In this document: piece by piece, positions 20,130 to 46,571 of the stretch
Numbering within the stretch: the first letter of the stretch is position 1
Layout of the letters: every line of letters starts with the position of its first letter
Assembly: GCF_003334785.1 (NCBI RefSeq)
Contig: NZ_QOWV01000002.1
Source of the DNA: Escherichia coli
GTDB taxonomy: Bacteria; Pseudomonadota; Gammaproteobacteria; Enterobacterales; Enterobacteriaceae
Length of the DNA: 64,000 nucleotides
Strand: one strand, 5' to 3'
Notes under the pieces: generated by a model
The model's input: the letters and a program-made list of their open reading frames with translations, nothing else
Database searches by the model: none
What the model was told of the DNA's origin: nothing
Translations under genes and position numbers: made by a program

Positions 20130-20174
20130 TCGACGGACGATAGATAATTCCTGAGACAATAGTGTAAAAAACGA

Positions 20175-20212
20175 GCCGCTGGGGGTGTTTTAAACCCCAG
20201 CGGCTTTTTTTT
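20175..20212 (+). terminator. Rho-independent terminator after lrhA
   Basis: Hairpin GCCGCTGGGG-gtgttttaaa-CCCCAGCGGC followed by T8. Confidence 0.85.
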
Positions 20213-40109: not shown

Positions 40110-41837
40110 ATGCGAAATAAAAATATAATCATGTTGCTTATGAGTAGTTTGATTTTGTCAGGATGTGGGCCGCAACCTGAGAATAAGGAAAGTCAGCAAC
40201 AACAACCCAGTACTCCCACAGAGCAGCAAGTGCTTGCCGCGCAGCAAGCTGCAATAAAAGAGGCTGAGCAAAGCGCCGCCGCCGCGAAAGCCTTGGCCCA
40301 GCAAGAAGTGCAACAATATTCAGACAAACAGGCTTTACAGGGGCGATTGCAGGAAGCGCCAACATTTGCAAGAGCGGCTAAAGCAAAAGCTACACATATC
40401 GCAAATCCAGGAACCGCTCGCTACCAGCAGTTCGATGATAATCCGGTTAAGCAGGTAGCGCAAAATCCGTTGGCGACGTTTAGTCTTGACGTTGACACTG
40501 GCAGTTATGCGAATGTAAGGCGTTTCCTCAATCAAGGGCTGTTACCTCCGCCAGACGCTGTGCGGGTGGAGGAGATAGTCAATTATTTCCCGTCTGATTG
40601 GGATATCAAAGACAAACAATCTATTCCGGCCTCTAAGCCAATACCTTTCGCTATGCGCTACGAATTGGCACCTGCACCATGGAATGAACAGCGAACATTG
40701 CTGAAAGTTGATATCCTGGCGAAAGATCGCAAAAGTGAAGAGTTACCAGCTTCTAATCTGGTCTTTCTTATCGACACTTCTGGTTCAATGATTTCTGATG
40801 AACGTTTGCCACTTATCCAGTCTTCGTTGAAATTATTGGTCAAAGAACTTCGTGAGCAGGATAACATTGCCATCGTGACCTACGCTGGCGACTCCCGTAT
40901 TGCATTGCCTTCTATCTCCGGGAGTCATAAGGCGGAAATTAATGCCGCAATTGATTCGCTGGATGCCGAAGGCAGTACCAATGGCGGTGCCGGGCTGGAA
41001 CTGGCTTATCAGCAGGCGACGAAGGGGTTTATTAAGGGCGGCATCAATCGCATTTTATTAGCCACTGACGGTGACTTTAACGTTGGCATTGACGATCCAA
41101 AATCGATTGAATCAATGGTCAAAAAACAGCGGGAGTCTGGTGTTACTCTGTCGACGTTTGGCGTGGGGAATAGCAATTACAACGAGGCAATGATGGTGCG
41201 AATTGCCGATGTTGGTAACGGCAACTACAGCTACATTGATACCCTCTCTGAAGCGCAGAAAGTATTGAATAGTGAAATGCGGCAGATGTTGATTACCGTA
41301 GCAAAAGATGTCAAAGCGCAAATTGAGTTTAACCCCGCGTGGGTAACGGAATACCGTCAGATTGGTTATGAAAAGCGCCAACTTCGGGTGGAACATTTTA
41401 ATAACGACAACGTTGATGCAGGGGATATAGGCGCAGGCAAACATATAACGTTGTTATTCGAATTAACGCTGAACGGGCAAAAAGCATCAATTGATAAGTT
41501 ACGCTATGCCCCGGATAACAAATTAGCGAAATCGGACAAAACGAAAGAACTGGCCTGGTTAAAAATTCGCTGGAAATACCCGCAGGGAAAAGAAAGTCAG
41601 TTAGTTGAATTCCCGCTGGGGCCAACAATAAACGCGCCCTCTGAAGATATGCGTTTTCGCGCAGCAGTAGCTGCATATGGGCAAAAGTTACGCGGTTCTG
41701 AATACCTGAACAATACCTCCTGGCAGCAGATCAAACAGTGGGCTCAGCAGGCAAAAGGGGAAGATCCACAGGGTTACAGGGCGGAATTTATTCGCCTGAT
41801 TGAACTGGCGGATGGTGTGACTGACATCAGTCAGTGA
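40110..41837 (+). CDS. yfbK: von Willebrand factor type A domain lipoprotein YfbK (575 aa)
   Basis: Lipobox LILSGC at N-terminus; Q/A-rich low-complexity linker; MIDAS motif DTSGS (nt 40774-40788). Confidence 0.88.
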   Translation: MRNKNIIMLLMSSLILSGCGPQPENKESQQQQPSTPTEQQVLAAQQAAIKEAEQSAAAAKALAQQEVQQYSDKQALQGRLQEAPTFARAAKAKATHIANPGTARYQQFDDNPVKQVAQNPLATFSLDVDTGSYANVRRFLNQGLLPPPDAVRVEEIVNYFPSDWDIKDKQSIPASKPIPFAMRYELAPAPWNEQRTLLKVDILAKDRKSEELPASNLVFLIDTSGSMISDERLPLIQSSLKLLVKELREQDNIAIVTYAGDSRIALPSISGSHKAEINAAIDSLDAEGSTNGGAGLELAYQQATKGFIKGGINRILLATDGDFNVGIDDPKSIESMVKKQRESGVTLSTFGVGNSNYNEAMMVRIADVGNGNYSYIDTLSEAQKVLNSEMRQMLITVAKDVKAQIEFNPAWVTEYRQIGYEKRQLRVEHFNNDNVDAGDIGAGKHITLLFELTLNGQKASIDKLRYAPDNKLAKSDKTKELAWLKIRWKYPQGKESQLVEFPLGPTINAPSEDMRFRAAVAAYGQKLRGSEYLNNTSWQQIKQWAQQAKGEDPQGYRAEFIRLIELADGVTDISQ

Positions 41838-41857: not shown

Positions 41858-41891
41858 TTCGACCAGTCAGCATATTTGCTGACTGGTCGAA
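41858..41891. terminator. Bidirectional terminator between convergent yfbK and elaD
   Basis: Near-perfect 14-15-bp inverted repeat TTCGACCAGTCAGCA-tattt-GCTGACTGGTCGAA with AT-rich flanks. Confidence 0.75.
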
Positions 41892-41907: not shown

Positions 41908-43118
41908 TTAACTCACTCTTTTGCCGGATGCTCTATTTTTGGGTTGTGAGTGTTTTATTTCTAAGTTTCTATAATAATGATTGATATTTGCATCGCCATA
42001 TTTATCTAAATAACAATTTCTGTTTGCCAGTCGATGTTGAAAATCAATTTCGTACTGCTCTTCTGCTGAATATTTTTTAAATCTGTCAGCATAGTTTTTT
42101 AATAATGTATAGGGGGCGCTGTCAGAATTGCTTTCCCTTTGTTCAATCACTTCCTGGGCTGCCATGCACACAAATGCACCGCAACTTTGGCTTAAGTATT
42201 GCTGAAGATCGGCATGTAAAAATATTATCTCTGGTTCATTTAAATGAACTTTTATATTATTATTCGACATTTCTCCCATGAGTTCAGAATTAAAACTATT
42301 AATGACACGCTTAAGTGAATTTTCTTTATCATAGCCTAGTGCACGCAATGAGTTGAATATGACGCATTTTATTTGTAGTTTATTATTTTTTTATTTACTA
42401 TTTTCTGTAGCGAAACTAATATCCAGTGTCCGCCAGTATTTATGGGGAATAACTGGACTTCATTCGGCCATGATGGATCGCTCTTAATATTTTCATTGAG
42501 AGCGTCTTCCAGGTGAGTTCTGGTGGAGTAGGGGACGTAGAGACCAGTAGGATAATTGACTTGAGTATTTTTTGCATTAGCGGCGATCTTCTGAAGATAG
42601 CAAGCTATTTCATCTGTGGTTAATTGACGATTTTTATCCCAGAAGTTTGTACCATCACTCAGTTCATTATTCTCATCATTTAAAAGCACCTTTGAAAGCG
42701 ACTGTTTTTCAGATATAAGAGGAATTTCATCACCGATAATTGTCATTAATTTCGAAGGGGAGAATAGTTTTTTGAACAGGAGATCATCTGAATCATGTGA
42801 TTTGAGGGGGGAGTTGGTTGCGATATGTGCCAGATTATATAATTTTAAACAAGCATTTTTGATAAGTCGGATAATCGATAGGGTCTCATTTGTTGGGGTT
42901 CTAACAATATGGTAAAGAATATCTTCAGCTTCTTTCCCAAATTTATCATAACCTAACGCAATATTATGCAGTAACTCAATGCTTTCTTCATCTCCGGATA
43001 ACGCTGTTTTTTTTAAAGACTGCAGTAATTCCTCGGTCACAGTAAATTTTTCTGCAAATGTCTGACTGAGTTGCGTTTGAGATAATTGACAATAATTGCT
43101 GACAACTGTAACCATCAT
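41908..43118 (-). pseudogene. elaD: elaD (CE-clan deubiquitinase-like cysteine protease) disrupted by a -1 frameshift in an A7 run; two ORFs of 249 aa (42369..43118) and 146 aa (41908..42348)
   Basis: ORF track shows two adjacent minus-strand ORFs in different frames; adding one A to the coding-strand run at 42386-42392 restores a continuous 403-aa ORF; span is 1211 nt (not a multiple of 3). Confidence 0.85.
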
Positions 43119-43305: not shown

Positions 43306-44223
43306 TTAAACGTTAAACACGGTGAAATCATTCGCCAGTTCAGTCGCCGGGAAAATTGACCTGCATTCACGTAACAGGTGCTGACAACCTTTGTCATCAT
43401 AGCGCGAGCTGACGTGGGTAATGATTAGCTTGCCGACTCCAGCCTCACGGGCTAGTGTCGCAGCCTGGCGTGTAGAGCTATGGCCGCGACTATTGGCTTT
43501 GGCTTCCATGGTTATATCCAGCGTCGCTTCGTGCACCATGACATCGACACCTTTAGCCAGGTCAAGTGCGGCATCGCAGGGGCCGGTATCGCCGAAAATA
43601 GCGAGCGCTTTACCTGGCACTGGAGCAGCTAAGTAATCTGCGCCGTTAATCTGCCTTCCATCTTCCAGCGTGATTGTTTTGCCCGCTTTTAATTCCTGAA
43701 ACAGTGGGCCAGGCGGCACGCCAGCAGCTTTTAATGCCTGGGCATTTAATGCACCCGGTTTATCATGTTCTTCAATACGATAGCCATAACATTCCAGTGG
43801 GTGTTCCAGCGGATAAGCGGTTACTTTGCGCAGGCCATCATCGAGAATTTCGCCAGCGCCAATTTCGACAATTTCCAGCGGATAATCGGTCCATGAGCCG
43901 CTAATCCGCAGCGCGGTTTCCACAAATTCACGGATACCTTGCGGACCATAAATCGTTAAGGGTTGGATAATGCCTGACATAGAACGACTGCACAGCAAGC
44001 CGGGTAAACCAAAAAGATGATCGCCATGAAGGTGACTGATAAAAATCTTGTCCAGTTTTCCAGGGTTAAAGGCGGTATGCAGTAGCTGATGCTGGGTGCC
44101 TTCACCGCAGTCAAACAACCAAAGTCCGCTCTGGGTCGGATGTTGCAGGTTAAGCAATATTGCCGTGACATTGCGCGTGCGGGTTGGCACACCGGCTGAA
44201 GTACCTAAAAAAATTAATTCCAT
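43306..44223 (-). CDS. rbn: RNase BN / RNase Z (metallo-beta-lactamase fold, ~305 aa)
   Basis: HxHxDH motif (HLHGDHLFG) in translation; start placed at [11 protein letters not shown]; ORF track start is 44241. Confidence 0.9.
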
Positions 44224-44287
44224 GAGTTCATCACGTTTCAAAAAATATTCCGGCTAGTATAAGGCATACATCTAAAAGGAGAGCATT

Positions 44288-44749
44288 ATGATTGAATGGC
44301 AAGATCTGCATCACTCTGAATTATCGGTTTCCCAGCTTTATGCCTTATTACAACTGCGTTGCGCGGTGTTTGTTGTCGAGCAGAATTGCCCTTATCAGGA
44401 TATCGATGGTGATGATTTGACGGGGGATAATCGCCATATTCTCGGTTGGAAAAATGATGAACTGGTGGCGTATGCGAGGATTCTGAAAAGTGATGATGAT
44501 CTTGAGCCGGTCGTTATAGGTCGGGTGATTGTCAGTGAAGCGTTGCGTGGCGAAAAAGTGGGGCAGCAGCTGATGAGTAAAACACTCGAAACATGTACGC
44601 ATCACTGGCCTGATAAGCCTGTTTACCTCGGGGCGCAGGCGCATCTGCAAAACTTCTACCAGAGTTTCGGTTTTATCCCTGTGACGGAGGTCTATGAAGA
44701 AGATGGTATCCCACACATTGGGATGGCACGCGAGGTAATTCAGGCGTAA
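44288..44749 (+). CDS. elaA: GNAT-family N-acetyltransferase ElaA (153 aa)
   Basis: ORF 44288..44749; K-12 synteny. Confidence 0.9.
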   Translation: MIEWQDLHHSELSVSQLYALLQLRCAVFVVEQNCPYQDIDGDDLTGDNRHILGWKNDELVAYARILKSDDDLEPVVIGRVIVSEALRGEKVGQQLMSKTLETCTHHWPDKPVYLGAQAHLQNFYQSFGFIPVTEVYEEDGIPHIGMAREVIQA

Positions 44750-44803
44750 TCAACAACCCTTGTCTATAGTTAGTGACAGGTTTTACGCAAATGGAGAACG
44801 AGA

Positions 44804-45109
44804 ATGTCTAATCAGTTTGGTGATACACGTATCGATGACGACCTGACGCTGCTTAGTGAAACACTGGAAGAGGTGCTCCGCTCCTCTGGCGATCCCGCCG
44901 ATCAGAAATATGTTGAGCTGAAAGCGCGTGCAGAAAAAGCGCTGGATGATGTGAAAAAACGGGTTAGCCAGGCTTCAGACAGTTATTACTATCGGGCGAA
45001 GCAGGCAGTTTATCGTGCTGATGACTACGTCCACGAAAAACCCTGGCAAGGAATTGGTGTGGGCGCGGCCGTTGGGCTGGTACTAGGACTGTTGCTGGCA
45101 CGCCGTTAA
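44804..45109 (+). CDS. elaB: Ribosome-associated tail-anchored membrane protein ElaB (DUF883, 101 aa)
   Basis: ORF 44804..45109; C-terminal hydrophobic anchor GIGVGAAVGLVLGLLLARR. Confidence 0.9.
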   Translation: MSNQFGDTRIDDDLTLLSETLEEVLRSSGDPADQKYVELKARAEKALDDVKKRVSQASDSYYYRAKQAVYRADDYVHEKPWQGIGVGAAVGLVLGLLLARR

Positions 45110-45187
45110 AACCTCCCTACACCGGGGTACTGCATTTTTTTTGTAGTACCCCGTATAATGTGAGGCTTTTAACAGGGAGAGGTCCGC

Positions 45188-46483
45188 GTGCAATCACTTA
45201 CTACGGCGCTGGAAAATCTACTGCGCCATTTGTCGCAAGAGATTCCGGCGACACCCGGCATTCGGGTTATCGATATTCCTTTCCCTCTCAAAGACGCTTT
45301 TGATGCCTTGAGCTGGCTGGCCAGTCAGCAAACATACCCGCAATTCTACTGGCAACAACGTAATGGTGATGAAGAAGCTGTCGTCCTGGGCGCGATTACC
45401 CGTTTTACGTCGTTGGACCAGGCACAACGTTTTCTTCGCCAGCACCCGGAACACGCCGACTTACGCATTTGGGGGCTGAATGCTTTTGACCCGTCGCAGG
45501 GCAATTTACTTTTACCCCGCCTGGAATGGCGACGCTGTGGCGGTAAAGCCACGCTGCGGCTGACGCTATTCAGCGAAAGCTCCCTTCAGCACGATGCGAT
45601 TCAGGCAAAAGAATTTATCGCCACACTGGTGAGTATCAAGCCCTTGCCTGGGTTACATTTAACCACCACGCGAGAACAACACTGGCCGGACAAAACGGGC
45701 TGGACGCAATTAATCGAACTGGCAACGAAAACCATCGCCGAAGGTGAGCTCGACAAAGTGGTGCTCGCTCGGGCAACTGACCTGCATTTCGCAAGTCCGG
45801 TCAACGCGGCGGCGATGATGGCTGCCAGTCGTCGACTGAATCTGAATTGCTACCATTTTTACATGGCCTTTGATGGCGAAAATGCTTTTCTTGGCTCTTC
45901 ACCGGAACGGTTATGGCGGCGGCGTGACAAAGCGCTGCGTACTGAAGCGCTGGCGGGAACAGTAGCAAATAATCCTGATGATAAGCAGGCGCAGCAGTTA
46001 GGAGAGTGGCTGATGGCGGATGATAAAAACCAGCGCGAGAACATGCTGGTGGTGGAAGATATCTGTCAACGATTACAGGCCGATACCCAGACGCTGGATG
46101 TTTTACCGCCGCAGGTACTGCGTCTGCGTAAAGTGCAGCATCTTCGCCGCTGTATCTGGACTTCACTCAACAAAGCGGATGATGTGATCTGTTTACATCA
46201 GTTGCAGCCAACGGCAGCAGTTGCTGGCTTACCGCGCGATCTGGCGCGACAGTTTATCGCCCGTCACGAACCGTTCACCCGAGAATGGTACGCCGGTTCT
46301 GCGGGCTATCTCTCATTACAACAAAGCGAATTCTGCGTTTCCCTGCGCTCAGCAAAAATTAGCGGCAATGTCGTGCGATTATATGCTGGCGCGGGCATTG
46401 TCCGTGGTTCCGACCCCGAGCAAGAGTGGCAGGAAATCGACAACAAAGCGGCAGGGCTGCGTACTTTATTACAAATGGAATAG
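45188..46483 (+). CDS. menF: Isochorismate synthase MenF (431 aa)
   Basis: ORF 45188..46483, GTG start; first gene of menaquinone cluster. Confidence 0.93.
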
Positions 46484-46571
46484 TAATGAGTCGCATCATT
46501 ACCGATTCATATCAATAATCTATTTTTGTAGCTCCTTATACTTAGCCGCAATATTGATACCGGACAAACTC

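Follow-up and report, generated by a model that had tools for sequence, protein, structure and literature searches.

In Escherichia coli the elaB message ends at a stable hairpin, the menF operon starts from the TATAAT hexamer that directly follows this hairpin, and only part of the transcription that reaches the junction reads through it. As regards the elaB 3′ end, we consider it probable that the hairpin is a partly efficient terminator that works without a U-tract and afterwards protects the message, and that the same DNA provides the −35 region and spacer of a promoter that depends on its −10 box. Both end points already stand in public high-throughput tables, undescribed as a unit, and the junction is a compact but ordinary terminator-plus-promoter arrangement.

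The elaB–menF junction and its hairpin

The window, by which we mean the whole 64,000-nucleotide stretch of E. coli DNA that was analyzed (contig NZ_QOWV01000002.1), carries rbn on the minus strand followed by elaA, elaB, menF, and menD on the plus strand. An earlier reading made from the letters only (below, the sequence-only reading) had named the genes on either side of the hairpin elaB and menF. These names are correct; in 5,422 of 5,426 complete E. coli genomes the flanking ORFs are so annotated and the 601 bases around the hairpin are present at 95–100% identity. The plus strand of the window corresponds to the K-12 minus strand, and a K-12 coordinate equals 2,425,831 minus the window coordinate, a relation that was verified for each base on the K-12 sequence. 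The features of the junction are the following.

44804..45109, + strand: elaB coding sequence, 101 aa (ORF list; elaB in E. coli genomes, K-12 b2266)
45107-45109, + strand: elaB stop codon TAA
45113..45118, + strand: CUCCCU, candidate anti-Shine-Dalgarno (anti-SD) sequence in the elaB 3′ UTR (core conserved in most of 33 taxa)
45123..45134, + strand: hairpin 5′ arm CGGGGTACTGCA (folding; GGTACT invariant in 33 taxa)
45135..45141, + strand: U7 loop (folding; lies in the T8 run and in the promoter spacer)
45142..45153, + strand: hairpin 3′ arm TGTAGTACCCCG (folding; ACCC invariant; abuts the −10 hexamer)
45154..45159, + strand: −10 hexamer TATAAT of the menFDHBCE promoter (TATAnT invariant in 33 taxa; start site 8 nt downstream)
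45157 (K-12 2380674, minus strand), + strand: 3′ end of the elaB and elaA-elaB mRNAs (Term-seq and SMRT-Cappable-seq)
45167 (K-12 2380664, minus strand; ±1 nt for table convention), + strand: start site of the menF-menD and menFDH transcripts (SMRT-Cappable-seq)
45174..45183, + strand: menF Shine-Dalgarno (SD) region AGGGAGAGGT (inside the 21-nt leader, 45167-45187)
45188..46483, + strand: menF coding sequence, with its GTG start at 45188 (ORF list; K-12 b2265)

The inverted repeat described in the sequence-only reading is real, with CGGGGTACT at 45123–45131 and AGTACCCCG at 45145–45153. The 9-bp stem given there is present but too short, as an extra G·U, C-G, and A-U pair bring it to 12 pairs; the hairpin as folded (45123–45153) begins 13 nt after the elaB stop codon and has a 12-bp stem, including the one G·U, with 7 nt between the arms. 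Similarly, the T8 run that was placed in the loop exists at 45135–45142, but the folded loop is U7. TATAAT does adjoin the end of the stem (45153) directly, and its distance to the menF GTG, estimated at about 30 bp, comes to 28 nt when counted between the hexamer and the start codon.

A 48-nt stretch with the hairpin folds at −21.9 kcal/mol, which is z = −5.0 relative to dinucleotide shuffles (mean −9.3, SD 2.5); not one of 200 such shuffles is as stable. Only seven inverted repeats in the 64-kb window, the hairpin among them, reach 12 nt with no more than 40 nt between the arms, and the element is found at a single place per E. coli genome, without annotation. An Rfam scan of 44000–46000 at E ≤ 10 gave no relevant match, the only matches being chance snoRNA matches elsewhere. 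In being a stable GC-rich stem-loop the elaB hairpin has one hallmark of an intrinsic terminator. The 8 nt after the stem, GUAUAAUG, contain only three U and do not amount to the U-rich tract of such terminators, and a terminator scan that requires at least five T in eight did not call the hairpin. The word “atypical,” which the sequence-only reading had used of a possible elaB terminator, is therefore apt, because no U-tract follows the stem.

Two other structures were tried as terminators and rejected. A small hairpin, ACCUC...GGGGU, with the T8 run as its tail has the U-run 6 nt off the stem, and the mapped end at 45157 lies outside T8; a compound terminator made of a CCUC:GAGG closing helix and CUUUU is unlikely, the mapped end being upstream of it. 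We also note two further inverted repeats in the window. A perfect 15-bp repeat with a 4-nt loop at 41858–41891 (TTCGACCAGTCAGCA / TGCTGACTGGTCGAA) sits between the convergent ORFs 40110–41837 (+) and 41908–42348 (−) and has no T-run, and is another hairpin without a U-tract at gene ends. The repeat at 20167–20212 (AAAAACGAGCCGCTGGGG / CCCCAGCGGCTTTTTTTT), which is preceded by an A-run and followed by a T-run, has from its sequence the look of a bidirectional intrinsic terminator.

Mapped transcript ends and the menF promoter

The sequence-only reading had proposed 3′-end mapping for elaB and start-site mapping for menF as checks, and published data supply both. Term-seq and SMRT-Cappable-seq agree on an elaB 3′ end at 45157, which is the fourth base of TATAAT and lies 4 nt beyond the stem; an end in vivo just past the stem is characteristic of intrinsic terminators. 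In the Term-seq data K-12 2380674(−) is a “primary” elaB 3′ end (Adams 2021, PMC7815308, Supplementary file 1). It is entered three times in a file that covers three growth conditions, two of the three entries score 54,112 and 221,851, and the flanking sequence that the file gives is identical to that of the window. In SMRT-Cappable-seq (Yan 2018, PMC6131387) 2380674 is a “novel TTS” of primary transcripts initiated at the elaA start site, 2381565. Among its 30 reads from M9 medium 10 stop at 2380674 and 16 pass it, no reads end at ≤50 bp beyond it, and the median read-through is 199 nt; the operon table of that study also has an elaA-elaB-menF read-through variant. Read-through is thus substantial, at 16 of 26 informative reads in M9, a figure from a single condition and only 30 reads. 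Even so, the combination that the sequence-only reading had named as contrary to it, a menF start elsewhere together with pure read-through of elaB, is not what the data show.

A literature search on the elaB–menF terminator, Rho-dependent termination, and ProQ, Hfq, and RIL-seq returned nothing on the elaB–menF junction, and a paper on CsrA and elaB covers the elaB 5′ end only. The same public tables contain two other sites of note in this neighborhood. In the rbn–elaA spacer (window 44250–44266) the operon table of Yan 2018 places divergent start sites for elaA-elaB (K-12 minus, 2381565) and rbn (K-12 plus, 2381581) that are 16 bp apart. In the menF–menD spacer, window position 46550 (K-12 2379281) is at once the start site of menD-containing transcripts (Yan 2018) and a Rho-termination region (Adams 2021, Supp. 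2), which suggests a second termination/re-initiation junction within the men operon.

The menF start site is given by the SMRT-Cappable-seq operon table, in which menF-menD and menFDH start at K-12 2380664(−) (Yan 2018, PMC6131387). This is window position 45167, 8 nt after TATAAT; entries of the form 23806xx or 23807xx are absent from the Cappable-seq supplement (PMC4782308). The hairpin is not part of the native menF leader, which measures only 21 nt and begins beyond it; the other possibility raised in the sequence-only reading, a “regulated structure,” finds no support. The perfect TATAAT and a primary (triphosphate) 5′ end in the range of 6–9 nt downstream of the −10 are the properties of a sigma-70 promoter. 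The −35 region lacks them: the best candidates, CTGCAT and TGCATT (45130–45136), which overlap the 5′ arm of the hairpin at the DNA level, match TTGACA at 2 of 6 positions. A promoter consensus scan called no promoter and no −35 at the junction, and there is no TG extended −10 motif, the bases at −15/−14 relative to the hexamer being CC. With so poor a −35 the promoter therefore depends on its −10 box alone. TATAAT by itself is not significant, since the 64-kb window has 12 copies and 23 are expected from shuffles; it acquires its meaning here because it is conserved and the start site has been mapped.

Conservation of the junction

The comparison covers 80 ElaB-encoding loci, one genome per species. 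A spacer of the same design joins elaB to menF in 35 Enterobacteriaceae, whose genera include Escherichia, Citrobacter, Salmonella, Enterobacter, Lelliottia, Leclercia, Silvania, Phytobacter, Trabulsiella, and Pluralibacter. In a 33-sequence alignment the invariant parts are GGTACT in the left arm, ACCC in the right arm, TATAnT, a TTT around the transcription start, the GG within the SD (with nearly invariant flanks), and the CGTG that contains the start codon; all 35 taxa examined begin menF with GTG. The loop and everything upstream of the hairpin diverge, and the length of the loop differs by at most 2 bases between genera. The TATAnT pattern agrees with the known hierarchy of −10 positions, and such conservation is what a working −10 box should leave in an alignment.

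The core stem pairs never vary in the 33 sequences, and the comparison therefore neither proves nor disproves an RNA structure. The apical pairs do vary, with some double changes, and 79.6% of cells are paired compared with 29–54% in slid controls. Within E. coli, genome L002 has two wobble-compatible stem changes, C45123T and T45144C, and uncompensated mismatches are found in UTI89 and PE144 (A45145C) and in PKF8 (C45152G). Pluralibacter has an intact left arm and a degenerate partner arm. Matches to a CCCC...GGGG hairpin that the scan returned in Salmonella and Pseudenterobacter are weak 4-bp stems and were ignored. As a separate observation, the menF leader of Yokenella regensburgei contains one more perfect hairpin, GAACCTGCCTCAGGCAGGTTC, located after the −10/start-site region and before the SD; all other genera compared lack it.

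In genera that lack the GGTACT hairpin, a canonical stem with its T-run mostly stands after elaB, and so elaB transcription normally ends at the position of the hairpin. Cedecea davisae and Enterobacter sp. R1 have a canonical terminator, a stem with T9, that precedes CACGTATAAT by about 17 nt, and in Atlantibacter CACGTATAAT comes after a GC-rich stem at which the scan called no T-run terminator. The −10 region CGTATAAT is kept in genera without the GGTACT hairpin as well. The presence of CACGTATAAT in these genera means that the −10 box is shared more widely than the hairpin, and from this distribution of sequences the box is apparently older than the hairpin design.

The alignment also bears on a candidate pairing upstream of the hairpin. 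CUCCCU in the elaB 3′ UTR is complementary to AGGGAG (45174–45179) in the menF SD, and the match extends to ACCUCCCU at 45111–45118, the SD partner then being AGGGAG(AGGU) at 45174–45183. The two partners flank the menF start site; the SD complement is thus upstream of the gene’s own start, and therefore only read-through RNA could form the CUCCCU:SD helix. In several genera the flanking positions change in concert (CCCCUCCCU with AGGGAGGGG, CUUCUCCC with GGGAGAAG, and CUCCCCCG with CGGGGGAG). In a register-free test cognate duplexes have −15.5 kcal/mol versus −13.8 for permuted ones, and 0 of 20,000 permutations are as low; in a column-based count 73.8% of cells are paired but the covariation score is weak, at 0.111 versus 0.098, a value reached by 33 of 500 shuffles. 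Both strands are low-complexity runs of C and of G that are able to pair elsewhere too. Partition-function folding in 28 taxa predicts a mean probability of an unpaired SD of 0.21 in read-through RNA versus 0.42 in native RNA. Measured against shuffled upstream sequence, this predicted occlusion of the SD is clear in Phytobacter, Silvania, Leclercia, Salmonella, and others, and is absent in the window (0.50 vs. 0.43) and in all other Escherichia.

Interpretation and comparison with known systems

The scheme that we favor is as follows. RNA polymerase arriving from elaA/elaB would transcribe 45123–45153 into a very stable 12-bp stem-loop, and part of the polymerases, about 40% in one quantitative dataset, would stop just past the stem. 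The RNA–DNA hybrid at the stop would be the A/U-rich GUAUAAUG, so that the −10 hexamer replaces the missing U-tract; the released RNA would be trimmed to 4 nt from the stem, giving the end at 45157, and the hairpin would then shield the elaB mRNA against 3′-to-5′ exonucleases. At the DNA level the same bases would be the −35 region and spacer of a sigma-70-type menFDHBCE promoter in which TATAAT drives initiation at 45167, and the product would be a 21-nt unstructured leader beginning past the hairpin. Such a double use, as RNA stem and as promoter DNA, would explain why the arms are conserved in sequence and do not covary. The sequence-only suggestion, that an atypical terminator of elaB and the −10 element of menF are combined here, agrees well with the 3′ end at 45157, the start at 45167, and the missing U-tract. 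We infer that the 45157 end comes from hairpin-dependent, Rho-independent termination and not from trimming alone.

It is possible, although we doubt it, that the hairpin is only a stabilizer. All polymerases would then enter menF, where Rho or pausing would end them; menF would be poorly translated on the read-through RNA, ends would be heterogeneous and lie a few hundred nucleotides downstream, and the 3′-to-5′ exonucleases PNPase and RNase II would trim the RNA to the stable stem and leave the sharp end at 45157. A hairpin without a U-tract, an end just 4 nt from the stem as is typical of trimmed ends, and read-through reads that reach a median of only 199 nt are all consistent with this, and exonucleases are stated to trim back Rho-terminated RNAs (background in Adams 2021). 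The first ~170 nt of menF, moreover, are C-rich and G-poor, with a GC skew down to −0.25 at 45220–45360, and in base composition this C-over-G stretch looks like a Rho loading site, while the CUCCCU:AGGGAG pairing could block menF translation on read-through RNA. However, no bicyclomycin-sensitive region is reported between 2379281 and 2382764 on the K-12 minus strand, even though elaB is abundant, in a list that by its authors’ account underestimates Rho sites (Adams 2021); the nearest Rho-termination region on that strand is 2379281 itself, 1.4 kb downstream. Rho mostly requires >50 nt of untranslated RNA (Adams 2021), and 13 nt are available between the elaB stop codon and the stem. It is because of these two points, and because the 50 bp beyond 45157 are free of read ends, that we favor termination over pure trimming; in addition, the folding model for Escherichia shows no SD occlusion beyond shuffled controls, contrary to a block of menF translation. 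Counting against termination are the missing U-tract, the 16 reads that pass compared with the 10 that stop, and the small read counts, and a 3′ end at +4 agrees equally well with exonuclease trimming from any downstream end. The hairpin may thus be read either as the cause of termination or as a mere block to exonucleases. Read-through RNA also figures in a wider idea, that menF is functionally insulated by a fold-back like that of IS10, which is suggested by sequence complementarity and which we put forward tentatively, with little confidence. Equally speculative is its extended form, in which the junction would be a two-level insulator made of hairpin, anti-SD, and Rho, IS10-like and conserved at a housekeeping operon boundary across the Enterobacteriaceae. 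The hairpin would stop part of the sigma-S-driven elaB transcription, and escaping transcripts would carry CUCCCU paired with the menF SD and yield no MenF; their untranslated RNA would be cut short by Rho on the C-rich start of menF, in line with the short median read-through, and only transcripts from the promoter embedded between the pairing partners would be translatable.

Two readings that give the inverted repeat some other role are far less probable than these. It could be a DNA operator for a dimeric factor, covering −44 to −14 of the menF promoter, with the hairpin as a by-product; we regard this as very unlikely, and likewise its specific candidates, a LuxR-type protein such as SdiA or a LexA-like CTG-N-CAG site. 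The arms contain TACTG...CAGTA, which is reminiscent of CTG-N10-CAG boxes. The conservation of both arms without covariation would suit an operator, as would the left arm that Pluralibacter keeps although its partner is degenerate, but the spacing of the arms varies among genera, from 13 to 15 nt between GGTAC and GTACC. The half-sites accordingly run from CTG-N9-CAG to CTG-N11-CAG in place of a fixed spacing, and a hairpin therefore fits better than a rigid dimer site; the LexA/lux-box reading was rejected for this variation. The in vivo RNA 3′ end at the base of the stem, too, speaks against an operator and means that the RNA structure matters. As for SdiA, the menFDHBCE promoter responds to it in Salmonella (~2-fold) and in Enterobacter cloacae, where a menFDHBCE fusion shows ~100-fold repression that is sdiA-dependent and AHL-independent (PMC11619404). 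The E. coli menF fusion, in contrast, is not SdiA-regulated, and the SdiA operator was dropped on that account and for want of a usable SdiA consensus to compare with. We note separately that the E. coli fusion is unregulated although its hairpin/−10 block is nearly identical to that of E. cloacae (PMC11619404). The last reading, a bidirectional or antisense element or a repeat or known RNA family (REP/BIME, riboswitch), is highly improbable and has largely been refuted already. The reverse strand of the hairpin region does fold well (−29.3 kcal/mol over 81 nt, z = −3.9), but elaB and menF are both on the same strand and Rfam gave no match at the junction. One copy per genome means that the element is not a dispersed repeat, and a hairpin that precedes the start of the menF leader cannot be a menF riboswitch.

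On the terminator-plus-promoter reading that we prefer, the last bases of the elaB mRNA lie within the −10 box of the next promoter, a tight packing of two transcription units, and one stretch of DNA would be RNA stem, promoter spacer, and substitute for the U-tract at once, and its unusual sequence conservation would thereby be explained. The junction separates stationary-phase elaB expression from menaquinone biosynthesis and is a natural case of a hairpin without a U-tract that still defines an mRNA end. If the anti-SD pairing were functional, it would insulate the operon at the level of translation as well, a feature to look for at other gene junctions.

The menF promoter resembles −10-dependent sigma-70 promoters in its perfect TATAAT and in a start 8 nt downstream, and differs from them in its 2-of-6 −35 region and in having no TG extended −10. 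Fold-back inhibition in the transposase mRNAs of IS10 and IS50, reportedly described by Davis, Simons, and Kleckner in 1985, is said to guard against read-through from outside promoters. The likeness is that a complement of the ribosome binding site lies upstream of menF’s own start, where only entering transcripts can sequester the SD; the differences are that elaB–menF is a chromosomal operon junction and not a transposon end, and that the pairing in E. coli is short (6 bp, or 8 bp with a bulge) and is not predicted to dominate. The stem-loops at processed 3′ ends of Rho-terminated mRNAs (Dar and Sorek 2018, PMC6061677; summarized in Adams 2021) resemble that of elaB in that the hairpin lacks a U-tract and has the 3′ end at its base and in that read-through products are short and heterogeneous, whereas no bicyclomycin-sensitive region is reported at elaB. 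Closest to our preferred reading are the intrinsic terminators with imperfect U-tracts (“novel TTS” of Yan 2018, PMC6131387), with which elaB has in common a stable GC-rich stem-loop after the stop codon, an in vivo 3′ end a few nucleotides past the stem, and partial read-through, as at most E. coli termination sites. It differs from them in that its hairpin is followed by no U run at all, in that its read-through, at ~60%, is at the high end, and in that its tail, GUAUAAUG, is the −10 box of the next promoter.
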